From: Kiritimatiellales bacterium
Lineage (GTDB): Bacteria > Verrucomicrobiota > Kiritimatiellia > Kiritimatiellales > Tichowtungiaceae
Direction of reading: 5' to 3'
Length of the DNA: 64,000 nt
NCBI GenBank assembly: GCA_037141075.1
Contig: JBAXDG010000001.1
Coordinates: forward strand, 1,811 to 65,810
Each line of letters starts with the position of its first letter. Position 1 is the stretch's first letter. The notes beneath the pieces were generated by a model. It was not told the origin of the DNA. It saw only the letters and a list, made by a program, of their open reading frames with translations, and searched no databases. Shown one piece after another: positions 11,334 through 59,991 of the stretch. The position numbers were made by a program, and so were the translations under genes.

Positions 11334-11395
11334 CCTGTCGTTGCGGGCGAAATGCGTTTGACCTCGTATTTGAAACCCCGCACAATCCCCGCCCA

Positions 11396-12667: not shown

Positions 12668-13585
12668 CCGAAGCAGCCAGACATGGCTGTTCGCATCGGC
12701 TCGCTGGAAATGAAGAATCCGGTAACGGTCGCCTCCGGCACGTTCGGCTACGGGCCGGAATACGCCGATCTGGTTGATCTCGACCGCCTCGGCGCGATTA
12801 CCGTCAAAGGCATCAGCACCGAGCCGCATGTTGGCAATTCGATGCCGCGCACGTTCGAAACATTTGCCGGCATGCTCAATGCCATTGGCCTGCCCGGTCC
12901 CGGGGCGCATATGTTCATTAAGAAAAATATACCGTTCTTCGAAAAATATCGCGTGCCGCTCATCGTCAACATCTGGGGAAAAACCGTCGAAGACTACAGC
13001 CGCGTCGCGGAGATTTTCAACGATCAGCCGCGGATCAGCGCGCTCGAAGTGAATGTTTCCTGCCCGAACGTCAAAGAGGGCGGGGCGCTCTACGGAACCG
13101 ATGTGAATCTGTTTCGCTCGGTCGTGGATGCAGTTCGCGCCAAGACGCAGAAGCCGCTGATCATTAAACTCGCGCCGAATGTGGCGGACATCAAACTGTT
13201 CGCCCGCGCCGCCGAAGAATGCGGTGCCGACGCCGTTTCCATCATGAATTCCTATCCGGCCATGGCGATCAATATTGAAACGCGCAAGCCGCAGTTGGCC
13301 AACCGCACCGGCGGACTCTCCGGCCCGGCCATCAAACCCATTGCCGTCAAACTGGTGTGGGAAGCCGCCAAGGCCGTTAAAATTCCAATCATTGGAATGG
13401 GCGGCATAACCAGTCCTGAGGACGCGCTGGAGTTCATCATCGCCGGCGCTTCGGCCGTCGCCGTCGGCACCGCCAACTTCACCGATCCTTCCACCGCGGT
13501 GCGCGTGATTGAAGGAATGGAGAACTGGATGGCGGCAAAAGGGATCGGTTCGGTTGCCGAGCTTAAAGGAACGGTGCAGGCATGA
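12617..13585 (+). CDS. pyrD: Dihydroorotate dehydrogenase (class 1B) catalytic subunit
   Basis: KNPVTVASGTFGYG, LEVNVSCPN, GGLSGPAIKP, IPIIGMGGI. Start uncertain (12617 or 12683). Confidence 0.96.
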   Translation: MMVMVSHDSTLPAPGSRPKQPDMAVRIGSLEMKNPVTVASGTFGYGPEYADLVDLDRLGAITVKGISTEPHVGNSMPRTFETFAGMLNAIGLPGPGAHMFIKKNIPFFEKYRVPLIVNIWGKTVEDYSRVAEIFNDQPRISALEVNVSCPNVKEGGALYGTDVNLFRSVVDAVRAKTQKPLIIKLAPNVADIKLFARAAEECGADAVSIMNSYPAMAINIETRKPQLANRTGGLSGPAIKPIAVKLVWEAAKAVKIPIIGMGGITSPEDALEFIIAGASAVAVGTANFTDPSTAVRVIEGMENWMAAKGIGSVAELKGTVQA

Positions 13586-30975: not shown

Positions 30976-33291
30976 ATGTATCGAAGCCGAATCGTGGTTC
31001 TGTTGTTGGTTTGTTCTTTTTCCCATTCATTTGCCCAGGACGGGTCTGGACATCCGGCGTTGAGCGATGAAGAACGTGCAGCGCGGCGGGCGCAGTTTGC
31101 TCAAAGGTTGCTGCAGGAGGGCGGAGCAGGCGGCGCAAGCGGTCCCACCAGTGCCGCGGTACGCGATCAGGCGGTGACCACTCAGCGCCCAGCTGAAGGC
31201 GGGCAGCTTGAAACCACCCGTCAGGCGACCGCGACAGGCTCCGAAGTGACGGTAAACTGGGAGAACATCACGCTGAAGGACAGTATCGAAGTCCTCTGCC
31301 GCGACCTCGGGATGGAATTTATCATTTCCCCTTCGGTGAATGTCTCGCAAGAAGTGAGCGTACGGGCTGGCGATGTAACCCGCTGGACGACGCAGGACAA
31401 GCAGGAGCTTTTTGACGCGATTCTTGAAACCGCCGGTGTGCAGAAAGTTCAGCGCGGCCGGGTCTGGGTTTTTTCGCCCTCCGACATTCGTCCGGTGGTT
31501 GAGGCCTTCAAAGACAGTAAATACGGCGACGGTAAGCCGGTGATCGGCATGATCAAACTGAAGAGTATTGACGCATCGCAGGCCGAGCCGTTTTTGAATA
31601 CGGTCGGCGGCAAGCCGCAGCGCGTTTTCGCCATGAAAGGCTCCCGTATGGTGCTGGTGCTTGGCACTCAGCAGTTCCTGACGCAGATGGAAGAACTCGT
31701 TAAACTGATCGATTTTCCGCCGGGCGTTTTGAGTCCTTACGCGCTCGAAAACGCCTCTTCCGACGACATGGTCAAAGAGCTGACGGCCATTTTTAACGGA
31801 CGGACCGGCGGAGACGGGGAGTCGATCCGCTTTACATCCGTGGCGCGATTGAATGTAGTGGTTGCGCTCAATGTTTCCGAGGGAATGACCGATGAAGTAA
31901 CCAAGTGGATCAAACTGCTGGACCGTTCCGATGTTGCCAATGAACGCGCCACCCGCGTTTACCGGTTACAGGTTATTGACGCGGAAACGATTGGCAAAAC
32001 GCTGGCCTCACTTTACTCGACCCTTTACAAGCAGACGCAGTCCGACAAAGCGGCGGCGGCAAAGATGGCGGCGGCGGCCTCCAAGAGCGGCGCGAACGCG
32101 AAGAAGAGCAGCGACTCAGCTCCGGCAAAGGCGGGCGGTTCCGAGGCCGCTCCGAAAGCGAATGCCTCGAAAGCGGATGCTCCGGCGGCCAAGTCGGCGG
32201 ACGCCTCGTCGCAATCCTCACCCAGTATGGAGGAGGAAGCGGTGATTCTGACGGATAAAGACACCAACACGTTGATTGTCAATGCAACGCCGGATCAGCA
32301 CCGTGACATTGAGCGGACCATCAAAGAGCTGGATAAGCCGCGCCGTCAGGTGCTGATTGAAACCGTTCTGGTCGAAATGACGCTGAGTGAGGGTATGGAT
32401 TTAGGTGTGGAATGGGCGGCGGCTAAAGGCATTTCTTCTGCCGGACTTCAGTCCGGGCTTAATAGCAGTATAACCCCCTTGAGCAGTATAAACCCCTTAA
32501 CCCCCTTGACCCCTGCAAACCCCTTGTTTAGTACTTTTAACCCCTTGATAGACAGTACTCCGGTCAATAACGGCCTGTCCTATCTGCTCAAAACCAGCGC
32601 CGAAAAATGGGCGTTCATCCAGGCTGCTGAGAACGATAACCGTTTGCAGGTGCTGGCCTCGCCAACCGTGCTGACCCGCGATGGAATGGCCGCGACCGTT
32701 TCCTTCGGGAATGAAGTGCCGGTTCAGGCGCAGAGTCAGACGGACGCAGGGAAGTCGAATTTTTCCTATGACTACCATGATGCGAAAATGATCCTCACGG
32801 TTACGCCGACGATTGACGACAATAAAAACGTCACGCTGGCTCTCTCGCAGGTTCAGCGGCAGGTGAATACGGATACGACAAAGCCGCCAGGGGTAACCAG
32901 TAGCGCGCCAACTTTCACGACGCGCGAAATCAGCTCCAGCCTGCAGGTGGCGAGCGGACAGACCCTGATTCTCGGCGGGTTGATCGCACGTAACGATCAG
33001 GTCATCAAAACCGGCATTCCGCTGCTCTGCCGTATTCCATATATCGGATGGATTTTCGGACGAAACAAGACGATCAAAGTCGGCACTGAAATTCTGATGA
33101 TTCTCACGCCGCACGTTGTGGACACCCGGGATGAAACCGATCTGTTGACCAAAGAGTTTCGCACGAAGATTATGGGGGCGATGTCGATGTCGGCGAAAGA
33201 CACCCGCAAGCTTTATAATCTGGAAGAACCGAAAGTCTCGACGAACGCACTGGTGGATACAGCTTCTGCCGAAGTGAAAAAGGAAGACTAA
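30976..33291 (+). CDS. gspD: Type II secretion secretin
   Basis: Signal peptide; RRQVLIETVLVE, VLASPTVLT, GQTLILGGLI, GIPLLCRIPYIGWIFG, LTPHVV. Confidence 0.92.
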   Translation: MYRSRIVVLLLVCSFSHSFAQDGSGHPALSDEERAARRAQFAQRLLQEGGAGGASGPTSAAVRDQAVTTQRPAEGGQLETTRQATATGSEVTVNWENITLKDSIEVLCRDLGMEFIISPSVNVSQEVSVRAGDVTRWTTQDKQELFDAILETAGVQKVQRGRVWVFSPSDIRPVVEAFKDSKYGDGKPVIGMIKLKSIDASQAEPFLNTVGGKPQRVFAMKGSRMVLVLGTQQFLTQMEELVKLIDFPPGVLSPYALENASSDDMVKELTAIFNGRTGGDGESIRFTSVARLNVVVALNVSEGMTDEVTKWIKLLDRSDVANERATRVYRLQVIDAETIGKTLASLYSTLYKQTQSDKAAAAKMAAAASKSGANAKKSSDSAPAKAGGSEAAPKANASKADAPAAKSADASSQSSPSMEEEAVILTDKDTNTLIVNATPDQHRDIERTIKELDKPRRQVLIETVLVEMTLSEGMDLGVEWAAAKGISSAGLQSGLNSSITPLSSINPLTPLTPANPLFSTFNPLIDSTPVNNGLSYLLKTSAEKWAFIQAAENDNRLQVLASPTVLTRDGMAATVSFGNEVPVQAQSQTDAGKSNFSYDYHDAKMILTVTPTIDDNKNVTLALSQVQRQVNTDTTKPPGVTSSAPTFTTREISSSLQVASGQTLILGGLIARNDQVIKTGIPLLCRIPYIGWIFGRNKTIKVGTEILMILTPHVVDTRDETDLLTKEFRTKIMGAMSMSAKDTRKLYNLEEPKVSTNALVDTASAEVKKED
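32464..32559 (+). repeat. 9/18-nt periodic repeat inside the secretin domain
   Basis: AGCAGTATAACCCCCTTG AGCAGTATAAACCCCTTA ACCCCCTTG ACCCCTGCA AACCCCTTG...; encodes SSITPLSSINPLTPLTPANPL. Confidence 0.7.
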
Positions 33292-33292
33292 T

Positions 33293-34981
33293 ATGGCGTA
33301 CCGTCAGCTGGGCGATATTCTGGTGGCGCAGGGAGCCGTCGGACGCGACGATATTCAGGCGGCGTTGCGCACTCAGCATGCGGATGGCGGCAAAACCCGC
33401 CTCGGGGAACTGCTGATCGAAGCCGGGAAGATTACTCCGGCGAATCTGGCGGCGGCGCTGGCGGCGCAGTTCGACCTGCCGCTTTGCACCTGCGAAAAAC
33501 CGGCGGAGCATCTGCTGATCGACGAAGGTCTGCCATTCGCCTTTCTGATCGAACACCGCATTCTGCTTCTGGCTGGCGAGAACGGTCAGGCCTGTTCGGT
33601 AATTACCGACGATCCGTCCGACTGGTCTGCGTTCGAAGCCATCCAGTTGCAGTTCGGAAAAGATTTGCCGTTGCAGGTGGTTTCGGCTGAACAGATGGGT
33701 GAGGCGCTGGATAGAATTCGCGGCTTCACCGACAACAATCTCAACACCTTGATGAAAGATGCGGAGGTTGTTGAGAAGGGTGACTGGAGCGACGAGGAAG
33801 AGCATTTGCGAGACCTCGCGCTGGAAGTCCCGATTGTCCGCATGGTGAACCTGATCATCACTCAAGCGGTGGATCGGCGAGCCTCCGACATTCATGTCGA
33901 AATCGGCGAGCACCGTCTGCGTATCCGTTACCGCGTGGATGGCGTTTTATACGAAGCGGAGCAGATTGATAAAAAGCACCATGCCGCCGTGGTTTCTCGA
34001 TTGAAGCTGCTGGCCCGTCTGGATATCGCGGAGCATCGCGTTCCGCAGGACGGACGCATTAAAATGATGATTCAGGGTCACGACCTCGATATGCGCGTGG
34101 CGACCACTCCGACAATTTACGGTGAGTGCGTCGTGATTCGCCTGCTGAATCAGCAGCAGGTCGAACTTTCCTTCGGCAGTCTGGGTATGCCGCTGCGCGA
34201 GCAGCAGGGTTTCAAGAAGATGATCGAAGATCCGCAGGGCTTTATTCTGGTGACCGGCCCGACCGGTAGCGGGAAAACCACAACGTTGCACACCGCCTTG
34301 ACTCACCTGAACAGCGAAAAAGTCAAAATCATCACCATTGAAGACCCGGTGGAAATCCGTCTGCCGTCCATCAATCAGATTCAGATGAATCCGAAGATCG
34401 GAATGACCTTTGCCAACGGCTTGCGGTCGATCGTTCGTCAGGACCCCGACATCATCATGGTCGGTGAAATCCGCGACAGCGAAACGGCTGATGTGGCGAT
34501 TCAGGCTTCGCTGACGGGTCACATGGTTTTAAGCACGCTGCATACCAACGATGCCGCCGGCAGTGTCGCGCGGCTGGCCGAAATGGGCGTGAAGAGCTAC
34601 CTCATCGCCTCGGCGCTGAGCGGTGTGCTGGCGCAACGGCTTTGCCGCCGGATCTGTCCGCACTGTTCGGAAGCCTTTACCGTTGCCGGTTCGCATCTGG
34701 CCGATTTTCCTGAAGCGACAGCGGCGGAATACACCCTTCATCGCGGACGGGGCTGTGAGCACTGCGACGGCACCGGCTTCTACGGCCGGATGGGTCTGTA
34801 TGAATTGCTGATTGCCGACGACGAAATGCGTTCGCTCATCCAGCGCACCGCCGAGGCCGGGCCGATTCGCGAGCTGGCCCGCGCCAAAGGCATGCGGCTC
34901 CTGCGTGAGTCCGGCTGGGACGCGGTGATGTCTGGCGCCAGCACGGTTGAAGAAGTGCGGCGCGTAACCCGGTGGGGTTGA
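33293..34981 (+). CDS. gspE: Type II secretion ATPase
   Basis: ASDIHVE, GPTGSGKTTT, TIEDPVE, RQDPDIIMVGEIRD, CxxC zinc motifs. Confidence 0.96.
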   Translation: MAYRQLGDILVAQGAVGRDDIQAALRTQHADGGKTRLGELLIEAGKITPANLAAALAAQFDLPLCTCEKPAEHLLIDEGLPFAFLIEHRILLLAGENGQACSVITDDPSDWSAFEAIQLQFGKDLPLQVVSAEQMGEALDRIRGFTDNNLNTLMKDAEVVEKGDWSDEEEHLRDLALEVPIVRMVNLIITQAVDRRASDIHVEIGEHRLRIRYRVDGVLYEAEQIDKKHHAAVVSRLKLLARLDIAEHRVPQDGRIKMMIQGHDLDMRVATTPTIYGECVVIRLLNQQQVELSFGSLGMPLREQQGFKKMIEDPQGFILVTGPTGSGKTTTLHTALTHLNSEKVKIITIEDPVEIRLPSINQIQMNPKIGMTFANGLRSIVRQDPDIIMVGEIRDSETADVAIQASLTGHMVLSTLHTNDAAGSVARLAEMGVKSYLIASALSGVLAQRLCRRICPHCSEAFTVAGSHLADFPEATAAEYTLHRGRGCEHCDGTGFYGRMGLYELLIADDEMRSLIQRTAEAGPIRELARAKGMRLLRESGWDAVMSGASTVEEVRRVTRWG

Positions 34982-34989
34982 GCCGAATT

Positions 34990-35080
34990 ATGAAATGTGA
35001 AAGATGAACTATGAAATCGGTATTTATAACCTTGGTTAATTTATCCATTTTCATCCTTCATCTTTCATCTTTCATCTTTC
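34990..35080. repeat. Empty heptamer hairpin (same family as cassette A arms) between gspE and gspF
   Basis: 34990-35017 ATGAAAT GTGAAAG ATGAACT ATGAAAT; 35048-35080 TTTTCAT CCTTCAT CTTTCAT CTTTCAT CTTTC; 30-nt loop with no ORF. Confidence 0.85.
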
Positions 35081-35099
35081 TGCCAACGGAGTTGGCGAA

Positions 35100-36314
35100 A
35101 TGATCCGTTTTTCATACAGAGCAATCACCGCTGATGGAACTCCCCACAACGGCTCGCTGGAGGCGCCCGGCAAAGCACAGGCGGCTCTGTCGCTTCAGAA
35201 AAGCGGATTAATTGTTCTCAGCCTGTCGGCCGCCGGCGAACAGGGCTCTTCCGGATCGGCATCCTTCGCGCTGACCGGCCGCGTCAACGCGCAGCATCTG
35301 GTGGACTTTGCCATCGAAACATCGGCGTTGCTTGATGCGAAGGTTCCTCTGGAACAGGTGCTCAAAACACAGACCGACCTCTGTACGCACAAACGGTTCA
35401 AAGAAATGCTCACCTCAATCTGGCAGGATGTGAATGGCGGGGCTTCTTTTGCCGACGCACTGGCGCGGCACCCGAAAACATTCGAACGCTTTTTTGTCAA
35501 TATGGTGCGAGGCGGCGAGGCATCCGGCTCGCTGGAGCTGATCATGCGGCGTATTGCGGAGTTACTGGAACGCCGCATGAAACTGCGCACGAAAGTGGTT
35601 GGCGCGTTGATTTATCCGTCGCTGCTCGTGGTCATGGGCGTCGTGGTGATCAGTGTCATGATGATTTTTGTGGTTCCGAAAATGACGTCGCTGTTCGGGG
35701 ATTCCGGGCGGTTGCTGCCGGCGTCCACGCGGGCGGTGATCGCGATGAGTAATTTTACCCGTTCCAGCTGGTGGCTTTTCCCGCTGGCGTGCGCCGGCCT
35801 GTTTTCCGTTTATAAAATGAAGACCCGCTCCGAAGAAGGGCAGGCCGCTTTCGGGCGCGCCATCTTGAAAATTCCACTGCTTGGAAACCTGATCGCGCAG
35901 GCGGAGACCAGCCGCTTCTGCCGTATGATGAGTTCGCTGCTCGACGGACAGGTTCCGATTCTTTCCGCTCTCTCGATCACCGGCGGCACGCTGGGCAACG
36001 CGGCGCTGCGTAAGCTGATGAAAGAAGTCTATTCCCGTGTGCAGGGCGGCCAGCCGATGGGGCCGCTTCTTCAGGCCAGTCCGGAATTTCCGGAGCTGGC
36101 TTCGCGCATGATCACCATGGGCGAGGAGTCCGGCGAATTGCAGACGATGCTCAACAAAGTGGCCGATCGCTACGAAGAAAAAGTGGCCGCCACCACCGAG
36201 CGGCTGGTCGGCGTGATCGAGCCGGTTTTTATTATCTTAATGGGGATCGTCGTCGGGTTCATTGTCATCAGCATGATGCAGGGCATTATGGCGATGAGTA
36301 CGTCGGCGGGATAA
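35100..36314 (+). CDS. gspF: Type II secretion inner-membrane platform protein
   Basis: GASFADAL..HPKTF..FFVNMVRGGEASGSL, ALIYP, GEESGEL..ML, EPVFIILMG. Confidence 0.95.
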   Translation: MIRFSYRAITADGTPHNGSLEAPGKAQAALSLQKSGLIVLSLSAAGEQGSSGSASFALTGRVNAQHLVDFAIETSALLDAKVPLEQVLKTQTDLCTHKRFKEMLTSIWQDVNGGASFADALARHPKTFERFFVNMVRGGEASGSLELIMRRIAELLERRMKLRTKVVGALIYPSLLVVMGVVVISVMMIFVVPKMTSLFGDSGRLLPASTRAVIAMSNFTRSSWWLFPLACAGLFSVYKMKTRSEEGQAAFGRAILKIPLLGNLIAQAETSRFCRMMSSLLDGQVPILSALSITGGTLGNAALRKLMKEVYSRVQGGQPMGPLLQASPEFPELASRMITMGEESGELQTMLNKVADRYEEKVAATTERLVGVIEPVFIILMGIVVGFIVISMMQGIMAMSTSAG

Positions 36315-36844
36315 GGGAACGGAAGAGTGGAAGGTTGGAAGAATGGTGATGGAATACACCCAAAGAAAAAATATTAACCGGGGATATCGGAAGCTGTGTG
36401 TTTGGCAGGATGCCATCGAATACTACGCTTTGACCTGCGGGATATTTATGAAGTTTCCTTACGAATTAAAGCGCATCGCCTCCAACCATATTGCATCGGT
36501 CGATTCCATTCATCGGAATATCGCCGAAGGATTTTGCCGCCGGTCGCTCAAGGAATATCTGGTGTTCTTGAACTATGCGCTGGCTTCTGCAGGAGAATCC
36601 GTTTCCGGGCTTCACGCTTATATGCATTCCGGCCAAATTGCGACCGGACAGTTCGAGGAGATGGATCAACTCGCCTACAAGATAGAGAACGGTTTGAAGA
36701 AGCTGATCGAAAGTCTGCAACTCAAACAACAGGACAAGGATTGGGACGACAGTTTTATTATCAAAGAGAGCAATGTTCAATATCTCACAGAACGGGAGAG
36801 GGCGGATGATTCTTCCATCCTTCCTCCCTTCCAAACTTCCAACC
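36315..36844. repeat. Complementary octamer repeat arms flanking four-helix-bundle gene C
   Basis: 36321-36344 GGAAGAGT GGAAGGTT GGAAGAAT; 36809-36840 ATTCTTCC ATCCTTCC TCCCTTCC AAACTTCC. Confidence 0.85.
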
Positions 36845-36873
36845 CAAAAGCAGAGGAAATGAACCATGAATAA
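36343..36873 (+). CDS. Four helix bundle protein, copy C (C-terminal extension)
   Basis: RGYRKLCVWQDAI...SIHRNIAEGFCRRSLKEYLVFLNYALASAGE; the 3' end reads through the right repeat arm. Confidence 0.88.
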   Translation: MVMEYTQRKNINRGYRKLCVWQDAIEYYALTCGIFMKFPYELKRIASNHIASVDSIHRNIAEGFCRRSLKEYLVFLNYALASAGESVSGLHAYMHSGQIATGQFEEMDQLAYKIENGLKKLIESLQLKQQDKDWDDSFIIKESNVQYLTERERADDSSILPPFQTSNPKAEEMNHE

Positions 36874-37315
36874 ACGAAACAAACGTAATAACTGCAACCG
36901 TAACGCCGGCTTTACACTGGTTGAACTGCTGGTGGTGCTGGTGATTCTAATGGTGATCGGAACAATTGCCGTGCAGAACTTCGGCGGTGAAGAAGACAAG
37001 GCCAAGGTGAAAGCCACGAAAGCGTCCTTTACGTCGCTCGAAAATGCGCTCGAACGCTTCAAGCTGGATGTCGGCCGTTATCCGACGGCGGAAGAAGGTT
37101 TGGCGGCGCTGTACGACGCGCCCGACGGAGTCGAAGGCTGGGCCGGTAAATATTTGACGAAGCGCCGGTCGCTGAAAGACGCATGGGAAAACGATTATGT
37201 TTATGTGATTCCCGGGCCGGACAACGAACCGTTTGAAATTAGGTCCTACGGCGCGGACAAGGTGGAAGGCGGCGAAAAATTCAACGCCGATCTCTCCAAC
37301 CTTGACGAAAAGTAG
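36866..37315 (+). CDS. gspG: Major pseudopilin
   Basis: AG|FTLVELLVV, ALERFKLDVGRYP..EEGL.AL, W.G.YL, DAWENDYVY..PG, SYGADKVEGG. Confidence 0.95.
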   Translation: MNKRNKRNNCNRNAGFTLVELLVVLVILMVIGTIAVQNFGGEEDKAKVKATKASFTSLENALERFKLDVGRYPTAEEGLAALYDAPDGVEGWAGKYLTKRRSLKDAWENDYVYVIPGPDNEPFEIRSYGADKVEGGEKFNADLSNLDEK

Positions 37316-37335
37316 GAAATTGGAAGGTTGGAAGA

Positions 37336-38061
37336 ATGGAAGGTCGGAAGCCCAGTTTGGAGTGCGGCGGGAAACGAAGTGCCACGCCGCTTTTTCATCC
37401 GCAAAGAGCGGTGTCGTCCGTTGGTTGCCACCGCACTCCAAAGCGTTGCAATGCCGCGTTCACATTGATCGAATTGCTGGTGGTGCTGGCAATTATCTCG
37501 ATCATGGTCGGCGTGGCAGTCGCCACGCTCTCCGGAGCCGGTACGCCGAAGCAGCAGCTGCGCCGCGAAGCCCGCGACTTAACCAAACTGCTTAAAGAGG
37601 CGCGGCAGGCCGCGATGGAGCGCAAACTGAAAGTGGATGTTTATGTCGAGCCGTCTGTTCGTGCGGTTTGCGCGGTTGAATCCGGGTATGCACGCAAGCT
37701 GCTGGCGGACAACGCGGAGTTCTTTACGGATGAAACCAGTCTGAAGGAACTGGTGCCGGAAACAAACCGGTTCTTCCGGGTGACAACCTTTCCGGAAGAG
37801 ATCGCCGTGGAAGCCTTTGCGCTAAGTGATATTGAGCCGGAAAAAACCGGGGAGGAACCGCTGTTTGAATCGGTGCCGAAAGAAGTTCCAATGACTGGAA
37901 CCGAAACCCCCGAAGTCAGCCGGGCGGTTTTCAGTTTTACACATCTGGGCGGCGCCTCCGGCGGTGGAGTCAGCGTGGTGCGCAACGGACTGCGCGTTGA
38001 TATCGCCTGCGATCTGCTTACCGGACTGCCGGAAATTGTTCAGCGGAAGGCGGCGCAGTGA
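37336..38061 (+). CDS. Minor pseudopilin (GspH-like) with repeat-derived leader
   Basis: AA|FTLIELLVVLAII prepilin motif; position after gspG. Confidence 0.8.
   Translation: MEGRKPSLECGGKRSATPLFHPQRAVSSVGCHRTPKRCNAAFTLIELLVVLAIISIMVGVAVATLSGAGTPKQQLRREARDLTKLLKEARQAAMERKLKVDVYVEPSVRAVCAVESGYARKLLADNAEFFTDETSLKELVPETNRFFRVTTFPEEIAVEAFALSDIEPEKTGEEPLFESVPKEVPMTGTETPEVSRAVFSFTHLGGASGGGVSVVRNGLRVDIACDLLTGLPEIVQRKAAQ
37356..37442. repeat. 87-bp REP-like palindrome, copy 1 (in frame in a prepilin leader)
   Basis: TTTGGAGTGCGGCGGGAAACGAAGTGCCACGCCGCTTT...AAGAGCGGTGTCG...TTGCCACCGCACTCCAAA; nested stems. Confidence 0.85.
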
Positions 38062-38549
38062 AACGCTTGCGGAAAATTTTGGAGTGCGGCGGGAAACGAA
38101 GTGCCACGCCGCTTTTATATTCGCGAAGAGCGGTGTCGCCTATCGGTTGCCACCGCACTCCAGAACGTTGCAGCGCGGGCTTCTCCCTGCTGGAGGTTCT
38201 GGTGGCGCTGGCGATTTTTGCGATTGCCGCCGGCGGGGTTCTCGTGGCGCTGGGACATCATTTAAAAAATGTGTCGTTTCTGCAGGACCACTCGCGGGCG
38301 GTGCGGATTGCTTCCCGAGAAATGAATGCAATGCGACGGATGCCTACTGCTCTGGAAGAAGTAGCGGAAGGTTCTGAAGATCGCTTTTCCTGGATGTCTT
38401 TGGCCAGCACCGAAGGACTTGAGGAGTGGCCGGGGCTGACCTCGTCGACGGGAACGCCCGTGCGGCTTTCGGTGACGGTTCAGTGGAGTGACAGTGCGGG
38501 CGGGCCGCCGGCGGGAAAGGTTCGGCTGGACGGCTTTGAGGTTTTTTAG
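38058..38549 (+). CDS. Minor pseudopilin (GspI-like) with repeat-derived leader
   Basis: AG|FSLLEVLVALAIFAI; GTG start overlapping the upstream stop. Confidence 0.8.
   Translation: MKRLRKILECGGKRSATPLLYSRRAVSPIGCHRTPERCSAGFSLLEVLVALAIFAIAAGGVLVALGHHLKNVSFLQDHSRAVRIASREMNAMRRMPTALEEVAEGSEDRFSWMSLASTEGLEEWPGLTSSTGTPVRLSVTVQWSDSAGGPPAGKVRLDGFEVF
38078..38164. repeat. 87-bp REP-like palindrome, copy 2 (in frame in a prepilin leader)
   Basis: TTTGGAGTGCGGCGGGAAACGAAGTGCCACGCCGCTTT...AAGAGCGGTGTCG...TTGCCACCGCACTCCAGA; same length as copy 1. Confidence 0.85.
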
Positions 38550-38558
38550 GGCAGGAGA

Positions 38559-39365
38559 ATGATGAGAAAAGTGGAACATTGGAAGAATCGAAGCAGGGAT
38601 GTTGAATATTCAGCATCCCATCCTTCCATCCTTCCATCCTTCCACTCTTCCGCTTTCACGCTCATTGAGCTGCTGGTTGCGCTTGCGCTGCTGGGAATTC
38701 TCGGCGCTTCGCTGGCCGGAGTTTTGCGTAACTCAACGGACTCGGTGGATCAGGCTCAGGCGTCGGTGGATCACCTGACCCGCTTGCGCTCGCTGGATTT
38801 GGTTCTGGGCGGCGCTCTGCGTGATGCGGTCACACTGACGTTGTCAGACACCGAGCAGAAGATGCTGGCCGATCAGGTTTCTTTCGATGCGGCGGCCGGG
38901 ACGATCCGGTTCCACGGCGAAGAGCAATCGCTCGGGTTCTGTCTGCAACGGCCGTTTTTGTCTGCCGAGCGCGACGGATATACGCACTGGATTTCGCTGG
39001 ATATCCGGCAGGATGAAAAGACGGAACGCCGTTCACTTTGGCTCCGCGATGTTTCGTTTATTCCCGGTGTCGACAATCCGGTCGGCGACGACTGGGGCGG
39101 GCTGGATGGCGAAGTGGCCGAGCGTCTTCCGGTTCAGGAAGTTTGCCTGGTTCGCGATGCGGCGACGTTGAGTTTTCATTTCTGGGCCCTTCCGGAAGAC
39201 GGCGTCAGCGATCCCGAGGAAATGGAGCCGGATGCTATTGCCGGGGACTATGCGCTGGATACTCCCGATTATATTGAGATGGAAATTAAAATGCCGAAGG
39301 GCTCGGCGGAAGTGCTGACGTTTGATTACAGCCTGAGGGAGAAGCTGCCGTTATGGGCACAGTAA
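38559..39365 (+). CDS. Minor pseudopilin (GspJ-like) with repeat-derived leader
   Basis: SA|FTLIELLVALALLGIL; position in the cluster. Confidence 0.8.
   Translation: MMRKVEHWKNRSRDVEYSASHPSILPSFHSSAFTLIELLVALALLGILGASLAGVLRNSTDSVDQAQASVDHLTRLRSLDLVLGGALRDAVTLTLSDTEQKMLADQVSFDAAAGTIRFHGEEQSLGFCLQRPFLSAERDGYTHWISLDIRQDEKTERRSLWLRDVSFIPGVDNPVGDDWGGLDGEVAERLPVQEVCLVRDAATLSFHFWALPEDGVSDPEEMEPDAIAGDYALDTPDYIEMEIKMPKGSAEVLTFDYSLREKLPLWAQ
38573..38651. repeat. Empty octamer hairpin (cassette C family) forming the GspJ-like leader
   Basis: GGAACATT GGAAGAAT CGAAGCAG GGATGTTGAATATTCAGCATCC C ATCCTTCC ATCCTTCC ATCCTTCC ACTCTTCC. Confidence 0.85.
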
Positions 39366-40423
39366 CCTCCAGAGATTCGAAGTCCGGATCGGCGCTCCTG
39401 ATTGTATTGGGAGTGATGGCGATTCTTTCGCTGCTGGTGGCGGAGTTCGGTCGCGGACTGCGGGCGGATCTGCGCGCCTCCGGCGGTTTTTATGAAGAGG
39501 CTCAGAATGATCAATTGGCCCGCAGTGCGCTGGCCGCGGCGCAAATTGAGCTTTTGGCGGTGGGCGCTTCGATGTACGCCGACCCGACCGGGAATGTTTA
39601 TTTTGTGACGAGTGACGAAACGGCCGAATCCGAGATCGCCGCTCTGGCGCAGTACCGGCTGGGTCAGCCGCTGGGGCGCGGATCGTTTTCATACCGCTTT
39701 GTGATGAAACCCTATGCATTGGATATTAATGAACTGAGCGCCGACGCATTGGGGCGGCTGTTTGAAGTGGCCTGCGGTCTTGAGGAAGGTGACGAACGCT
39801 TGGCGCTGGTGGATGCCATTCTTGACTGGACGGATTCCGATAATGTTGCGCGCGCTTACGGTGCCGAAGAGGATTTTTACAAGGCGCTTGTTCCGCCGCG
39901 TCATTGCCGCAATGCTCCGTTCGAAACGGTTGAAGAACTGTTCCTGGTTAACGGGATTACGCCGGATATGCTGTTCGGATATGGCCTTCCGGCACACATC
40001 GAGGATGGTATACTGATGGGCGGCGGGCTTTACCGTTTTCTGATTGGAGATAACTGCCCGGAGGCGCAGGCTTCCGTTCAGTATATTCTGCGGGGGATTT
40101 TCCCTTCGGATGATCAGGGCAAAAAGGATGTTGAAGTGGTTAGCGGGTTTCAAAAAGTAGCCGAGTTGCCGTCAGTGCTTTATCTCGTGGCCGAGGGCTT
40201 TGTCCCCTCGGCGGCGGGAGATAAAGAAGCTCCTGCTTTAGGAGCGGAAGAATCTGCTCCGGCCGATGCAGCTTCCCGGCATATCATTCTGGTAAAACTG
40301 GCTGTGTCTAAAAGCACCCAGAACGCGGGGTATACGATTGATGATTTTCAGGAAAATGCTGCTGGCGAACTGCTGGAGCAGGTGCTGGTGTATGGAGTCC
40401 CGGAGGAAACGAATGAACTTTAA
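39353..40423 (+). CDS. gspK: GspK-like minor pseudopilin
   Basis: GSALLIVLGVMAILSLL, ALVDAILDWTDSD, NAPFETVEELFLVNGI. Confidence 0.85.
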   Translation: MGTVTSRDSKSGSALLIVLGVMAILSLLVAEFGRGLRADLRASGGFYEEAQNDQLARSALAAAQIELLAVGASMYADPTGNVYFVTSDETAESEIAALAQYRLGQPLGRGSFSYRFVMKPYALDINELSADALGRLFEVACGLEEGDERLALVDAILDWTDSDNVARAYGAEEDFYKALVPPRHCRNAPFETVEELFLVNGITPDMLFGYGLPAHIEDGILMGGGLYRFLIGDNCPEAQASVQYILRGIFPSDDQGKKDVEVVSGFQKVAELPSVLYLVAEGFVPSAAGDKEAPALGAEESAPADAASRHIILVKLAVSKSTQNAGYTIDDFQENAAGELLEQVLVYGVPEETNEL

Positions 40424-41810
40424 AAATATGCCGGAAGTCAAGTGGATGGCCGGAAGATCGAGTCTGATTCTGATTTTCCGGGATACCGCGGTGGATGTCG
40501 TCTGGCTGGAGCAGAGTCTGCTCGGACCGGCAATCCGCCTGATGAAACGCTTTTCGCGTGACGAACAGATGCCGGAACTGCTGGCGCAGCAGATTCGTGC
40601 GGCGGAGAAAACGCCGGCACGCGTACTGGTCTGTCTGCCGCGGGCGATGGTGATGCAGCGGACTCTTTTCTATCCGGCGGCGGTTCAGAACGACCTCGCC
40701 CAGATGCTTCAGTTTGAGGTGTCGCGGCATGTGCCGCTGCCGGAAGCGGACCGGCGTGTTGCCTTTGCATCTATGCCGCTGCCCGACGGAAAACAGATCG
40801 GCGTGAATCTGCTGGCCGCCCGCGGCACTGAAATTTCAGCGTTTCTGGAGCCGTTGACCGCGGCCGGAATTCCCGTGGACGAGGTGGCTTCATTGAGTTC
40901 GCTGCTGGTTCCGGATGTGAACAGTGCGCCGACTTTGCTGGTTCTTACGGATGATACGCAGGTTGAGCTGGTTCTTTTTGCCAATGGACTCTTGTACGAC
41001 AGTCTGCCGGTTGACCGGCAGTCCGCCGGGTTCTGTAAAGAAATGCTGGTGGACGCGGCTCGGCGTATGGCCGTCCGGCACCGCGAGCTGCTCGGCGCGG
41101 AAGGAATCGGGCGAATCATCTGCGCCGGTGCGGCGGAACTTCCGGAAGAGTTTCGGAACACTCTTGAAACGTCCTTCGGTCTGCATATCCATCCATTGGA
41201 AATTCCGGAAGCCCTGCGGCCGGCGGCTTTATCGTTTTCCGATGGACCGGTTTTGACCGAAGCGCTGTGCGCTGCGGCTGCCGAGCCGCCGCCCACACTG
41301 AATCTGATTGAGCGGCCCAGCCGTACGGTATCTTTCAGCCGGCGGACGCTGATCATCGCAGGGTTGTGTATTTTACTGACAGTGGAACTGCTCGCCGGAT
41401 GGCTGATCCGAACGGTTTCTCCGGCCATAGCGCTGAAAGCCGTTGAACGCGAAACGGCGGATTTGAAGCGCAGCGCGGCTCCGATACAAACCGTGAAAAA
41501 CCAGAACCGCGATCTGCGCAGCGAAATTCAACAGCTTGACGAGCTTGGGAAAACCCGTGTGAGTGTCATGAGCATGCTGAAAGTTCTATCAGACACCCTT
41601 CCGGAGGATACGTATTTGCAAGGGATCACCTATACGCGCGGGGATAATATTCAGCTCAAGGGACGTTCCAAAACGCCGGACCGTATTCCCCAACTGGTTC
41701 AGAGCATTCCTTTTGTCAAAACCATCGAAGAGTCGGATATCGGCAAAAAAGACGATCAGTATTTTAAATTCAACCTTTCGGCAGCCTTGAGGAGTACGCG
41801 CAATGAATAA
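40413..41810 (+). CDS. GspL/PilM-PilN-like assembly platform protein
   Basis: Cytoplasmic actin-like region (LAQMLQFEVSRHVPL), single TM, PilN-like C-terminus (LSDTLPEDTYL..IQLKG). Confidence 0.75.
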   Translation: MNFKNMPEVKWMAGRSSLILIFRDTAVDVVWLEQSLLGPAIRLMKRFSRDEQMPELLAQQIRAAEKTPARVLVCLPRAMVMQRTLFYPAAVQNDLAQMLQFEVSRHVPLPEADRRVAFASMPLPDGKQIGVNLLAARGTEISAFLEPLTAAGIPVDEVASLSSLLVPDVNSAPTLLVLTDDTQVELVLFANGLLYDSLPVDRQSAGFCKEMLVDAARRMAVRHRELLGAEGIGRIICAGAAELPEEFRNTLETSFGLHIHPLEIPEALRPAALSFSDGPVLTEALCAAAAEPPPTLNLIERPSRTVSFSRRTLIIAGLCILLTVELLAGWLIRTVSPAIALKAVERETADLKRSAAPIQTVKNQNRDLRSEIQQLDELGKTRVSVMSMLKVLSDTLPEDTYLQGITYTRGDNIQLKGRSKTPDRIPQLVQSIPFVKTIEESDIGKKDDQYFKFNLSAALRSTRNE

Positions 41811-42489
41811 CTTTTTAACCAAACTGTCCCGGCGCGAACGGCTCTATGTGCTGCTCGCCGCCGCCGTTCTGATCGTCGGGGGAATTTTCTACCCCGTTTT
41901 CCGGGCGACCGAAAAATACCGTCAGGAAAAACTCGAGGAGCTGGATGCCGCCCAGTCGCTTCGCGCAAGTTATCAGGCGATGATTCTTTCCGCTGAACAG
42001 ATCCGGTCGGAAAACAGCGAGCTGAAAAAAGTGCTGAGTCAGGCGGATGGACTGCTGTTCGATCGGACCGGCAATGACGTGATGATGGAGGCTTCGATCA
42101 CTAAAATGCTCAATCAGATGGCTCCGGATCTTAATCTGGATATTTCCATGGCGCGTTCCTCGCTGCGTGGTGTGCCGGGACAGCTGAACTTCACCGTTCG
42201 CGGAACGGGGCGTTATCCTGAAATTCTGAACTTTTTTTATCAGCTCGAAACACACCGTCCGCTGATGATCGTGGATCAATTCAGCGTGGCGGTGCAGGGC
42301 AGCAAAAGCCCATCAGATCAAGGCAGTAAAAATCCGTCAAATCAAGGTAGCAAAAATTCATCCGATCAGAAGAAGAAGCCGTCCCCGCAGGCCAAGTCGC
42401 AGCGCACGGACGAACTGACAGAGCCCCGGATGAAACTGCAAATGAAGATTCACATCAACTGCCGGACGGCAGCGGAGGGCGGCAAATGA
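41803..42489 (+). CDS. GspM/PilO-like protein
   Basis: LSRRERLYVLL then TM, coiled coil and ferredoxin-like GRYPEILNFFYQLE; Q/S/K-rich repeat insert. Confidence 0.75.
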   Translation: MNNFLTKLSRRERLYVLLAAAVLIVGGIFYPVFRATEKYRQEKLEELDAAQSLRASYQAMILSAEQIRSENSELKKVLSQADGLLFDRTGNDVMMEASITKMLNQMAPDLNLDISMARSSLRGVPGQLNFTVRGTGRYPEILNFFYQLETHRPLMIVDQFSVAVQGSKSPSDQGSKNPSNQGSKNSSDQKKKPSPQAKSQRTDELTEPRMKLQMKIHINCRTAAEGGK

Positions 42490-43328
42490 AAATTTCGACT
42501 CATCGCCTGATTATTCCCGGCCTCGTGGTTCTCTGCGGCCTTGCCGCAGTGGCGTTGATTCCGGCCGTGCATCTGTCCCGGACAGACGTCGGCACACGTA
42601 AAGAGAGTCCACGCGCGGTTCCGGCTCTCGGCCTGAACGCCCTGAACGAAGCTCCTCCCACCATGCCGGAGGTTGTCGAGAAGCATTTATTTGTCGCTCA
42701 GCGCAAAGCGACGGGTCAGAACGCATTTCCCGATCTGATTGTGAAGGGGGTTTTTCTCGGGACGGAAAACAGCGCGGTTTTTTCACTGAAATCCACACCG
42801 CAGGCGAATCTACGGGTTTGGGCCGGTCGGACGGACAGCGCTTTGGCGCAGGTCACCAATCCGCGCGATCCACGCCAGCCGATTGTCGCGTTTCTGCGTG
42901 AGTGGAGCATTAAGGAAATCAGCTCCAGCGGCGTGACGGTCGAGCATTCTATTACCGGCGAGAAACAAACGTATGCGGTGAACTATACGCCGGTGGCAAA
43001 GGTGAAGGATGATGCCTCCCGCGGTTATGGGCAGGGCATTATCCCGCAGGGCGGCGAGGTGGCGGCGGGAACCGGCGCACGAACCGCTACCGGGAATAAT
43101 CCGATGGGGAGAGGTGGCCAATTTCCGTCCGATGCTCCGCCACCAGTGAACGTTCTGGCGAACCGCGTTTCCGAAATAATGCAACGGATGAGCCCCGATC
43201 AGCAGAAGAATTTTCTGAAGCAGATTGGACAGGATAGCTCCGGAGCAAATCAGAAGACCGACACCTCAGGGCAGTCCTCTTCGCAAAACAAATCTAAAAC
43301 CACCACCAAGACGAAGTCAGCCAAATAA
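42486..43328 (+). CDS. Last gene of the T2SS cluster, hypothetical (possibly GspC/GspN-like)
   Basis: Overlapping start, single TM, HLFVAQRK followed by a beta-rich segment. Confidence 0.55.
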   Translation: MKISTHRLIIPGLVVLCGLAAVALIPAVHLSRTDVGTRKESPRAVPALGLNALNEAPPTMPEVVEKHLFVAQRKATGQNAFPDLIVKGVFLGTENSAVFSLKSTPQANLRVWAGRTDSALAQVTNPRDPRQPIVAFLREWSIKEISSSGVTVEHSITGEKQTYAVNYTPVAKVKDDASRGYGQGIIPQGGEVAAGTGARTATGNNPMGRGGQFPSDAPPPVNVLANRVSEIMQRMSPDQQKNFLKQIGQDSSGANQKTDTSGQSSSQNKSKTTTKTKSAK

Positions 43329-45781: not shown

Positions 45782-46461
45782 CGGATGATGAAATTCGTAA
45801 AAGGTTTGAAGAATACAGAGATAACCTGTTGGACGAATGTCAGTATTTTGTTGCTTGTGTGCACATCAGCAAACGGTTTCGAGAGCAACAAATTAAGAAC
45901 CCCAAGTTAGTGAACACAGCGCCCTGTTATTGGGCCGTAAGCATGAAGTCAGTTTTTGTCTCGATTGTTTTGTGGGGAGAAAAGCTTTTTGGAGACCATG
46001 CTAAATCTAAGTGGCCGCAGATGGATTTCTGGGAATTTATTGATTTTTTAAAGGAGAACAGACAAGCCTTGTTCTCGACACCTATTTATTGCGAAGAAGA
46101 ATCATGGGGGGTTACCTCTGACGACATAGAAGCTCATCTCGAGAAACTTAAAAGCTTAGAGGGAATGAAGGTTATCAAGCACCTGAGAGACAAATATTAC
46201 GCACACTTCGATGAGGGTTTTTTTCTGGACCGGAAAAAGCTTCGGGATGGCACAGACATTAACTTTGCCGCGCTGGAAAACATGGGCAATGTTGCTCAAG
46301 AGATCCTTTTGCACTATTCACTTGCCTACAATGGGGAAGGGTTCAGCGTTAAGGCCGCAAATGTAGATGATGTAACAGGACTTTTTGGATTGATTGAGCG
46401 ATACTTCGACGAGCGAAAGAAATCGGTTAACATGATCCGAAAAGAAGGGAAGAAAGAGTGA
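45778..46461 (+). CDS. AT-rich hypothetical protein, HEPN (AbiU2-like) candidate
   Basis: All-helical character; RDKYYAH fits the Rx4-6H HEPN motif; codon usage differs from the neighbours. Confidence 0.55.
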   Translation: MTDDEIRKRFEEYRDNLLDECQYFVACVHISKRFREQQIKNPKLVNTAPCYWAVSMKSVFVSIVLWGEKLFGDHAKSKWPQMDFWEFIDFLKENRQALFSTPIYCEEESWGVTSDDIEAHLEKLKSLEGMKVIKHLRDKYYAHFDEGFFLDRKKLRDGTDINFAALENMGNVAQEILLHYSLAYNGEGFSVKAANVDDVTGLFGLIERYFDERKKSVNMIRKEGKKE

Positions 46462-47879
46462 GAAATAAATATTTGTTACTGACGGTCTGTTTATACTGCT
46501 TTGCAAATTTTTCTCTTGGAGATGATATCAACAATCTGTTGCAGTCTGCCAAACAAGGCGATGTCTCAGCCCAATACAATCTAGGTATCTGCTATAAAAA
46601 TGGTGAAGGCGTTCCGCAGGATTATAAGGAAGCGATTAAATGGTTCCGTCTTGCTGCTGATCAAGGTTACGCCGAAGCTCAAGCCGTTCTGGGCATTTGC
46701 TACGGTTTAGGTAACGGTGTTCCTAGTGATGATAAAGAGGCGGAAAAATGGTATAGGCTCGCCGCAGAGCAGGGGAATACCGCAGCCCAATTTCTCCTTG
46801 GTGTCTATTATGCCAATGGCAAAGGTATTTCGCAGGATTACGAAGAGGCTGTTAAATGGTTTCGCCTTGCCGCTGAAAAAGGGGATGCCCCGGCCCAATA
46901 CAGCCTGGGTCTTTGCTATGCCCGCGGCGAGGGTGTGCTGCAGGATTATAAAGAGGCGGCTAAGTGGTACCGTCTCGCGGCTGAACAGGGAGATGATAAA
47001 GCCCAAAGCAATCTCGGTCTTTGCTATGCCCGAGGCCAAGGTGTGCTTGAAGATTATGTTGAAGCGTACGCATGGTCGATAATTGCCGCAATGAATGGAA
47101 ATGAGCCTGCGGCTAAAAACAAAGGGAAGTTGGTCAACACTTTAAACAAAACTCAAGTTGCCGCGGGGCAAGAGCGGGCAAAAGAACTGATAGCGAATAT
47201 CGAGCGGAAAAAGCAACTTGCGAAATTGCCTGCCGGTCAGGTGCCTGCGGCAGACATTGCTCCTTCCGGATTTGGTAGCGGCTTACTGGTTAAAGGCGGA
47301 TATGTTTTGACCTGCTGGCATGTGGTTGAGAACGCCAAAAAAATCTCTGTCAGTTGCCAAGGGAAAGATTTTTCTGCCCGTTTGATTCAAAAGGATACTG
47401 GCAACGACTTGGCCATTTTGCGTGTCGATGGTGCCGATGCCGGAGTCTCGCTGAGTTTTGCCGATAGCGTGAAGTTAGGTGCACAGGTCTTTACGATGGG
47501 GTTTCCTCATCCCGGTTTACAGGGTTCGGATGTCAAGTTTACAACCGGATCAATCAGCGGGCTGACCGGCCCTGGAAATACCCCCGTTTATTTTCAAATC
47601 AGCGCACCGTTGCAGTCCGGCAACTCGGGCGGGCCGCTTTTTGATGAATACGGCAATCTGGTCGGGATAGTCGCGGCCAAGCTGGACTCTCTGAAGATGT
47701 TGGCCGCTACCGGCGACCTTACCCAGAACGTGAACTATGCCATTAAGTCGGACTATCTCGTTCCGCTCCTGAAAACGGTGGATGGCATCAAGATACAGCC
47801 GTCCCAGACCAAGCCGGTCAATTTGCTCGGACTGGTTGAGGATTTGAAGAAGTCGGTTGTGATGATCAAGGTTTATTAA
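46458..47879 (+). CDS. Secreted Sel1-repeat + trypsin-like serine protease
   Basis: Signal peptide, five Sel1 repeats (AQYNLG.CY..G.GV.QDY.EA..W), triad TCWHVV / NDLAIL / GNSGGP. Confidence 0.9.
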   Translation: MRNKYLLLTVCLYCFANFSLGDDINNLLQSAKQGDVSAQYNLGICYKNGEGVPQDYKEAIKWFRLAADQGYAEAQAVLGICYGLGNGVPSDDKEAEKWYRLAAEQGNTAAQFLLGVYYANGKGISQDYEEAVKWFRLAAEKGDAPAQYSLGLCYARGEGVLQDYKEAAKWYRLAAEQGDDKAQSNLGLCYARGQGVLEDYVEAYAWSIIAAMNGNEPAAKNKGKLVNTLNKTQVAAGQERAKELIANIERKKQLAKLPAGQVPAADIAPSGFGSGLLVKGGYVLTCWHVVENAKKISVSCQGKDFSARLIQKDTGNDLAILRVDGADAGVSLSFADSVKLGAQVFTMGFPHPGLQGSDVKFTTGSISGLTGPGNTPVYFQISAPLQSGNSGGPLFDEYGNLVGIVAAKLDSLKMLAATGDLTQNVNYAIKSDYLVPLLKTVDGIKIQPSQTKPVNLLGLVEDLKKSVVMIKVY

Positions 47880-59850: not shown

Positions 59851-59861
59851 AAACAATTTTT

Positions 59862-59985
59862 ACCACAGAGTTCTCAGAGGCACAGAGAATTACAGCCACG
59901 CAAAAAGATAGGAAGCGATCTCGAATGTTAGAGGCATCTTCTTCCAGCCATTAGAAACCCTCTGTGTCTCCGTGGCCTCTGTGGT
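59862..59985. repeat. Empty 9-mer-periodic hairpin between argS and the alkD-like gene
   Basis: ACCACAGAG TTCTCAGAG GCACAGAG ... CTCTGTGT CTCCGTGGC CTCTGTGGT. Confidence 0.75.
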
Positions 59986-59991
59986 GAAAAT

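Follow-up and report, generated by a model that had tools for sequence, protein, structure and literature searches.

Rickettsia palindromic elements (RPEs) have been described as selfish DNA in protein-coding genes (PMC10969869). A prepilin leader is a hydrophilic segment of variable length with Gly or Ala at its end; it remains in the cytoplasm and is removed by prepilin peptidase (PMC10191384). Our literature search found no description of repeats in prepilin leaders. The DNA analysed here, a stretch of 64,000 nucleotides (nt) from a Kiritimatiellales bacterium (assembly GCA_037141075.1, contig JBAXDG010000001.1, positions 1,811 to 65,810 of the forward strand; hereafter the window), contains a type II secretion operon in which hairpin-forming repeats occupy the leader-coding regions of three minor pseudopilin genes. 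With a probability of roughly 0.6, the discarded leader peptide shelters repeat DNA in this tightly packed operon; what we infer from the sequence is that the repeats are translated, that the long leaders are cleaved, and that the inserts are tolerated and not of use to the cell.

Among the proteins encoded in the 64 kb, prepilin-type N-termini were found only in GspG and in the GspH-like, GspI-like, and GspJ-like minor pseudopilins. PF07963 (N_methyl) matched all four with E = 1e-8 to 1.5e-6, the T2SSG profile matched GspG, and the class III motif could be read in each of them, with Gly or Ala at -1, Phe at +1, Glu at +5, and then a hydrophobic helix. The elements, which were located by inverted-repeat detection, lie in the H-, I-, and J-like genes inside the open reading frames (ORFs) that match N_methyl, with 0-5 codons between their end and the G/A↓F site (the arrow marks the predicted cleavage). 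The first-pass annotation of this DNA had placed repeats in the leaders of four consecutive pseudopilins; for H, I, and J, where the repeats are in frame near G/A↓F, this was correct, and for GspG it was not.

The leaders of the gspH-like and gspI-like genes each contain one copy of an imperfect palindrome of 87-89 nt (Table 1). The 37-nt 5' arm is identical between the two copies, the palindrome had two matches in the window and none in 100 shuffles, and the RNA of the copies folded strongly, with -46.9 and -50.7 kcal/mol (z = -6.1 and -6.8). Both the octamer arm with the 87-nt palindrome that had been described for the H-like leader and the second copy described for the I-like leader were therefore real features. 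Within the window the palindrome was confined to these two leaders, and it belongs to a REP-like (repetitive extragenic palindromic) family that is widespread in environmental bacteria. The GTG start of the gspI-like gene overlaps the stop codon of gspH (GTGA).

The gspJ-like leader holds a complete hairpin whose arms are built of GGAAGNNT units, as the first-pass annotation had also said. Arms of this unit were found at 36321-41(+), 36812-40(-), 37322-50(+), 38573-93(+), and 38615-51(-), that is, five arms in four places, and the pattern had nine matches in the window where 0.02 were expected. The complementarity between the right arm of the J hairpin and the left arm of a gene-bearing cassette at the gspF/gspG junction was 93%. 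The orphan arm at the start of the gspH-like gene has its counterpart in the relative L206, where a complete hairpin includes it as the left arm. The in-frame starts of the gspJ-like gene were at positions -28, -31, and -32 only, all of them at or before the first hairpin arm and none after it.

The leader of GspG was an ordinary leader rich in Lys, Arg, and Asn, with no significant repeat. The 9-nt units that had been reported for it came down to two adjacent 9-mers sharing 7 of 9 bases, an arrangement present at 338 positions of the window and so attributable to chance; Tandem Repeats Finder reported nothing there, and the stretch was unstructured (z = +1.1). The Shine-Dalgarno site and the ATG of gspG lie downstream of the cassette. 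A hairpin in the GspG leader was seen in none of 15 loci, and in the nine expanded loci the elements ended upstream of the Shine-Dalgarno site and the ATG.

Comparison of the orthologous leaders in relatives, which the first-pass annotation had proposed, revealed both filled and empty sites. An identical GspG protein was present in the metagenome-assembled genome GCA_964384695.1, and the relatives belonged to the Kiritimatiellales/Pontiellaceae. In relative L003, the same operon had no element at any junction and a gspE/gspF gap of 3 nt, and the leaders of G, H, I, and J were MGKRKQSRAG↓F, MRRNRNSG↓F, VKRLKKTNAG↓F, and VIRRYPTDSGRPARSG↓F, with lengths of 10, 8, 10, and 16 aa. At the H/I junction, empty and filled gspI loci have in common the start that overlaps the gspH stop (GTGA or ATGA), and their first codons (KRL+K) agree as well. 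The gspI-like leader of the window is V-KRLRKI-[palindrome]-RCSAG↓F. For H and J, the element took the place of the ancestral leader and did not merely interrupt it. Two loci differed at this junction: in L005 (~1352) and L205 (3441-3446), ATA (in ATAA) rather than ATG or GTG stood at the ancestral gspI start overlapping the gspH stop, the next in-frame start was a TTG 7 codons before the site, and the gene calls varied (115, 129, and 135 aa). The truncated GspI P0025 was considered as a case of a broken leader and rejected, since it reflected the choice of the gene caller, with ATA in place of the ancestral ATG and an in-frame TTG 7 codons before the site.

The reading frame was analysed in 16 Kiritimatiellales loci, which together contain 28 expanded junctions preceding H, I, J, or K. 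No stop interrupted the pseudopilin frame in 26 of these junctions, the other two frames were stop-free in 10 and 13, and the stops over all junctions added up to 3 in the pseudopilin frame versus 28 and 25. The two exceptions each had an ATG past the hairpin. Since the 28 junctions represent about 18 independent events, this result was far from chance. In the hairpins upstream of gspF and gspG, which served as control, a Shine-Dalgarno site and an ATG followed the element, so that it lay outside the ORF, and 15, 31, and 30 stops were counted in the three frames; an extension of the GspF N-terminus was never seen among the loci compared. The earlier proposal that in-frame repeats are tolerated in leaders gained support from the empty sites, the conserved start, and the frame-specific absence of stops, and had to be narrowed from leaders in general to those of the minor pseudopilins, the leaders that have no intergenic spacer before them.

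Taken together in one mechanism, hairpin elements would colonise gene junctions. Each minor pseudopilin gene either overlaps the gene before it or directly adjoins it, and because there is no spacer, the leader-coding stretch would be the sole inter-cistron sequence able to take about 100 nt. Only in-frame, stop-free versions of an element would survive there. Ribosomes would initiate at the upstream start that is conserved, or use an ATG brought by the purine-rich arm, and then read through the hairpin, and the product would be a cytoplasmic leader of 32-41 aa with a net positive charge. Prepilin peptidase would cut this leader at G/A↓F, and the mature protein would remain unchanged because the leader is removed.

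Several points weigh against this explanation. Both palindromes have an in-frame GTG in the 3' arm, located 16 codons ahead of the cleavage site; in the gspH-like gene, the in-frame starts were at -41 (ATG), -34 (TTG), and -16 (this GTG) only. Because of this GTG, only the distal half of the palindrome is possibly translated in H and I, and the 5' half may be untranslated. An extension of this view holds that the repeats are untranslated altogether or in all but their last third; the true starts would lie within or beyond the elements, and gene calling would have produced the long leaders as artefacts. The disagreement among gene callers is in line with it, P0055 being started inside the palindrome and P0013 and P0025 at an internal TTG or GTG, and so are the hairpins of L010 H and L008 K, which do precede an ATG. 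We consider it very improbable, as stops were lacking specifically in the pseudopilin frame in 26 of 28 junctions, and the start overlapping a stop codon is conserved together with a beginning of the leader rich in Lys and Arg. In at least nine junctions, among them window J, L206 J, L006 J, L012 I, L207 I, L206 H, and L009 K, every in-frame start was at or before the first hairpin arm, and none followed it. In 23 of the 28 junctions, the distance from the cleavage site back to the nearest in-frame start was 12 codons or more, while the stems ended 0-5 codons from the site. Starts downstream of the repeats, the case that the first-pass annotation had named as damaging to its idea, were thus missing in most cases.

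A second group of points concerns the number of elements in the operon. An element was present at 5 of the 5 junctions from gspE/gspF through gspI/gspJ, and not in the leaders alone, versus three elements elsewhere in the 64 kb, and this richness is a hint that the elements are targeted or selected and not simply tolerated. The label "selfish" used in the first-pass annotation was accordingly not established, given this enrichment and the restriction of whole-palindrome protein matches to two pseudopilins. The hairpins could instead be selected inter-cistron regulators whose translation is incidental, and which affect the ratio of GspG to the minor pseudopilins by protecting the upstream cistron from 3' exonucleases, by RNase III-type cutting, or by slowing ribosomes on their way into the next cistron. 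All E-to-J junctions were filled in L004 and L206 as well as in the window, the elements began 0-20 nt past the upstream stop, their structures were very stable (z = -6 to -7), and a lost element tended to be replaced by a different hairpin in the same place. The gene-bearing cassettes, moreover, resemble the intervening sequences of 23S rRNA, the stems of which we take to be RNase III substrates. On the other side, close relatives lack the elements (at every junction in L003 and L007, and at G-H and H-I in L005), and the sequence families differed between strains whose mature proteins were about 90% identical, which means rapid turnover. Elements were also found upstream of gspF and gspG, where reduced expression would make less sense. 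As for compensatory change, the homologous copies were too few: in the J-leader hairpin, 0-2 pairs were changed on both sides among only 3-4 homologous sequences. Regulation as the primary cause of the hairpins appears to us rather unlikely.

The turnover was seen at several levels. Between the window and L206, the mature pseudopilins were 88-94% identical and the gspF/gspG cassette and the J hairpin were common to both, while the elements in the H and I leaders differed; pseudogenisation was rejected on the grounds of this identity between strains with differing leaders. Contigs of the same samples carried alternative inserts at the H/I junction, and contigs of the same or similar samples that matched the flanks (37348-37462 and 38055-38175; runs X1, X22, and X24) carried other inserts at G/H and H/I, so the strains in these samples are polymorphic for the elements. 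One RNA contig was without the E/F hairpin. An assembly artefact was rejected because the same structures occurred in independent NCBI, ENA, JGI, and Logan assemblies.

Most of the remaining points against the shelter concern how the elements spread. Of 1.84 billion representative proteins searched at E ≤ 0.001, only one H-like and one J-like pseudopilin matched the whole palindrome; the other matches were spurious ORFs over intergenic arrays and covered the 5' arm only, and the I-like carriers were known from the GspI orthologue set, not from this search. About 9 nt of 3' flank are shared by the H and I copies. In a test for miniature inverted-repeat transposable elements, no target-site duplication was visible between filled and empty sites, and the element is palindromic throughout. 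The RNA data were limited to metatranscriptome contigs of relatives, in which the G-H junction was transcribed and strain variants were seen, and no RNA ends or processing were visible in them. Because the whole-palindrome proteins were H-like and J-like only and the 3' flank is shared between H and I, these sequences suggest that the palindrome was copied between paralogues within the operon, which is a better fit than transposition at random.

In that case the elements would have passed from one paralogous pseudopilin gene of the operon to another by recombination or gene conversion instead of transposing, with the conserved DNA for the N-terminal helix as anchor. Besides the identical 37-nt arm, the H and I copies have the flank CGTTGCA..GC in common, the leaders of P0122 (J-like) and P0124 (H-like) were identical (...HRTPEHSA↓F), and the palindrome of the window is restricted to two leaders. 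The tail SARSAG↓F, which resembles the end of the ancestral J leader (ARSG↓F), followed the octamer hairpins in H and J, and SARKAG, SARSAG, or SARNAG followed them in many I orthologues. Yet the wider palindrome family comprises more than 120 mostly intergenic metagenomic copies including tandem arrays, octamer-type hairpins and gene-bearing cassettes also occur at junctions without a pseudopilin, and the helix-coding DNA of H and I was no more alike in filled than in empty genomes. Conversion between paralogues as the route is possible, though doubtful. If it were the route, the leader would be a private niche and not a harbour for genome-wide selfish DNA, a view that we likewise hold only tentatively. 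Such conversion is compatible with the leader as a shelter.

Long leaders were also followed beyond the close relatives. Across 115 orthologue clusters of GspI, the leader varied from 4 to 70 aa and was at least 30 aa long in 40 of the 115. The 40 long leaders were translations of at least seven hairpin families, all with a net charge of at least 0 and all ending in Gly, and leaders of GspK carried hairpins too. In the cultured Pontiellaceae strain B1224 (locus L012), the I, J, and K leaders measured 32, 42, and 38 aa. Among the matches listed in a scan of contigs (80 loci), nine were Kiritimatiellales and the other 71 served as outgroup; in these mostly proteobacterial GspI loci, the start lay within 17 codons of the site in 64 of 71. 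The GspI leaders of 13-24 aa had a feature of their own, a recurrent 15-nt mini-palindrome, TTCCAAnnnTTGGAA, translated as FQxLE (P0006-P0061; H/I junction of L005 and L205), which was also found upstream of gspG in L004 (4777-4791).

The palindrome family itself was present in soil, peat, and freshwater metagenomes in more than 120 stretches, and the 83 copies that were read were mostly intergenic or in 5' untranslated regions. Seven of the 83, which run in the opposite orientation, form in-frame fusions with prepilin N-termini, giving ...RRGASLPAALQ(S/N/NR)A↓FTL[IV]E. In the GspH-I-J-K operon of L119, from a distant peat lineage, the H and J leaders contained palindromes and the I leader another repeat; the GspJ of L119 could be aligned with that of the window over 67 residues only, with 34% identity. 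The predicted ORF P0121 (348 aa) consisted of six tandem copies of the family about 62 aa apart, which corresponds to a long array in some genome. On the reverse strand of L124, at ~5600-5700, a PSCyt-like exported protein (...GLEFFERKVRPLL...) was encoded near a palindrome copy. Between the palindrome and the hydrophobic core there was no in-frame ATG or TTG, nor any start ahead of the core, and the Sec signal peptide of this protein may start at a GTG inside the palindrome.

Two features that the first-pass annotation had not described, a 23S_rRNA_IVP gene flanked by octamer arms at gspF/gspG and a heptamer hairpin at gspE/gspF, link the leader hairpins to a larger group. The window contained three PF05635 cassettes, each with its gene in the loop of a long hairpin (4651-5088, 12218-12670, and 36320-36848), located at the operon junctions carB/guaA, pyrK/pyrD, and gspF/gspG. 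The arms consisted of tandem 7-8-nt units that were different in each cassette (ATGAAAN, TGGRGCN, and GGAAGNNT, respectively). In all three, the purine-rich arm came first and the start codon of the IVP gene lay at or within a few bases of it; at gspF/gspG, the ATG is within the arm and the stop codon overlaps the start of gspG. The window is without rRNA, and all three cassettes (3/3) stand between protein-coding genes and not in a 23S rRNA helix. Two of the three arm types recurred in a gene-less hairpin of the window, 34982-35083 sharing its unit type with the cassette 4651-5088 and 38566-38657 with 36320-36848. The first of these gene-less hairpins is outside GspF, with stops in the gspF frame. 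The relation of the gene-less hairpins to the IVP cassettes looks like that of non-autonomous derivatives to an autonomous element. In L012, the IVP gene was at the gspE/gspF junction instead, and the IVP arms and the J and K leader hairpins of that locus were all of the GGATT type. Another hairpin, with CACAGAG units, was located at 59856-59991 between a DNA-alkylation-repair gene and argS (both on the minus strand), and no IVP gene with matching arms was found in the window.

A broader proposal is that the unit-array hairpins are the gene-less partners of the IVP cassettes and form with them an undescribed class of mobile element, characterised by unit arms with the purine-rich arm first, by Shine-Dalgarno-like motifs and an ATG borne on the arm, and by settlement in operon junctions. 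In type II secretion operons of the Planctomycetes-Verrucomicrobia-Chlamydiae (PVC) group, such elements would have taken over from the original start regions of the minor pseudopilin genes and would now set the output through ribosome access or RNase III-type cleavage, a takeover enabled by the cleavable leader. We regard this proposal as speculative and quite unlikely. The analysis ties the poorly understood 23S_rRNA_IVP gene family to a hairpin family.

The operon extends from 30976 to 43328 on the plus strand and comprises gspD-E-F-G, the gspH-, gspI-, and gspJ-like genes, gspK, a gspL/PilN-like gene, gspM, and one further gene. Membership was assigned by profile matches (Secretin, T2SSE, T2SSF, T2SSK_1st, GspL_C/PilN, and T2SSM). 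From gspK to the last gene of the operon, neighbouring genes overlap throughout, and no junction repeat was found there in the window. The features are collected in Table 1.

Table 1. Genes and repeat elements of the type II secretion operon, in window coordinates.
Feature	Position	Strand	Details
gspD	30976-33291	+	operon context
gspE	33293-34981	+	operon context
Hairpin, heptamer-unit arms (ATGAAAN type)	34982-35083	+	fills gspE/gspF gap; -33.1 kcal/mol, z = -7.2
gspF	35100-36314	+	operon context
IVP cassette, gspF/gspG	36320-36848	+	GGAAGNNT-unit left arm 36320-36346; complementary right arm 36809-36848
23S_rRNA_IVP four-helix-bundle gene	36343-36873	+	PF05635, E = 4e-14
gspG, major pseudopilin	36866-37315	+	leader MNKRNKRNNCNRNAG↓F; first F codon 36911
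Orphan GGAAGNNT-unit arm	37316-37350	+	carries ATG (37336) of gspH-like ORF
gspH-like minor pseudopilin	37336-38061	+	41-aa predicted leader, end NAA↓FTLIELL; first F codon 37459
87-nt imperfect palindrome, gspH-like leader	37356-37442	+	encodes ...LECGGKRSATPLFHPQRAVSSVGCHRTPK
gspI-like minor pseudopilin	38058-38549	+	41-aa predicted leader; first F codon 38181
Palindrome copy 2, gspI-like leader	38077-38165	+	between MKRLRKI and RCSAG↓F
gspJ-like minor pseudopilin	38559-39365	+	32-aa predicted leader, end SSA↓FTLIELL; first F codon 38655
Complete GGAAGNNT-unit hairpin, gspJ-like leader	38566-38657	+	-39.4 kcal/mol, z = -7.0
gspK	39353-40423	+	operon context
gspK with following gspL/PilN-like gene, gspM, and one more gene	39353-43328	+	

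Rfam gave no match on the window at the gathering threshold, and at E < 1 the matches were chance ones to miRNA precursors only. A sliding-window scan of minimum free energy over the window was dropped, as the elements were not separable from GC-rich coding sequence by it. Other repeats lie inside genes of the window. In the pyrK-like gene (11330-12217, DHODB_Fe-S_bind), an in-frame (GCAGGGA)x3.9 repeat is followed by a small palindrome, TTCCAAGGATTGGAA, at 11945-12005; it encodes ...DAGGREQGAGGQRFQGLEIF directly before the conserved ACGP motif and may be an in-frame insertion outside a leader. In gspM, a 24-nt tandem repeat is present three times (42298-42368) and encodes GSK(S/N)PS(D/N)Q, and a 108-nt tandem repeat is present twice (46832-47047) within the ORF 46458-47879.

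If the leader does act as a shelter, a peptide that is thrown away would be a niche for repeat DNA in incompressible, translationally coupled operons, and the idea of selfish intragenic DNA developed for RPEs would extend to an insert that never reaches the mature protein. Their prepilin peptidases would need to tolerate leaders 30-70 aa long, whatever the hydrophilic sequence in nearly all cases. For annotation, starts and lengths of pseudopilins are called inconsistently in PVC genomes, with GspI orthologues of 115-201 aa. For assembly, short contigs of the locus end inside gspH, and co-occurring strains carry different junction inserts.

Among the known systems, REPs and bacterial interspersed mosaic elements (BIMEs) are likewise imperfect palindromes in many copies, usually located just past stop codons inside operons, and their new copies also cluster at sites already occupied. 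They are extragenic by definition, whereas the H, I, and J copies are intragenic, most of the metagenomic copies of the palindrome family being extragenic. No link to a REP-associated tyrosine transposase (RAYT) was found, the sole Y1 transposase of the window being flanked by unrelated 33-nt repeats. That transposase is encoded by a 334-aa ORF with an IS200-like Y1_Tnp domain (188-1192) in the region 121-1211, between 33-nt inverted repeats at 121-153 and 1179-1211, in a REPtron/RAYT-like arrangement; the repeats had no other copy in the window and were unrelated to the leader elements.

The intervening sequences of 23S rRNA with an IVP ORF (PF05635) share with the cassettes a four-helix-bundle gene enclosed by a stem that the ends form, and versions without the ORF exist in both. 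The elements described here differ by their location in mRNA operon junctions and pseudopilin leaders and by arms made of tandem 7-8-nt units. Long hydrophilic class III leaders ending in Gly or Ala are also tolerated in type IVb pilins and in the pilins of Streptococcus sanguinis (PMC10191384). Those leaders are conserved within their family and are not built of repeats, in contrast to the range of 4-70 aa found here among orthologues of one minor pseudopilin.

The closest likeness in kind is to the RPEs. These too are palindromic repeats of about 100-150 nt, in frame and stop-free in ORFs, that some orthologues carry and others lack, and in both cases the presumed reason for tolerance is that the protein continues to function. 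The two have no relation in sequence, and at least seven unrelated hairpin families occur at the same site here. The host, too, is a free-living PVC bacterium and not one with a reduced intracellular genome. Judged from their sequences, the leader hairpins would be in-frame palindromic insertions of the RPE kind, and what would be new is the place of the insert: the peptide encoded by an RPE is kept on the surface of the mature protein, whereas the segment encoded here is predicted to be cut off.

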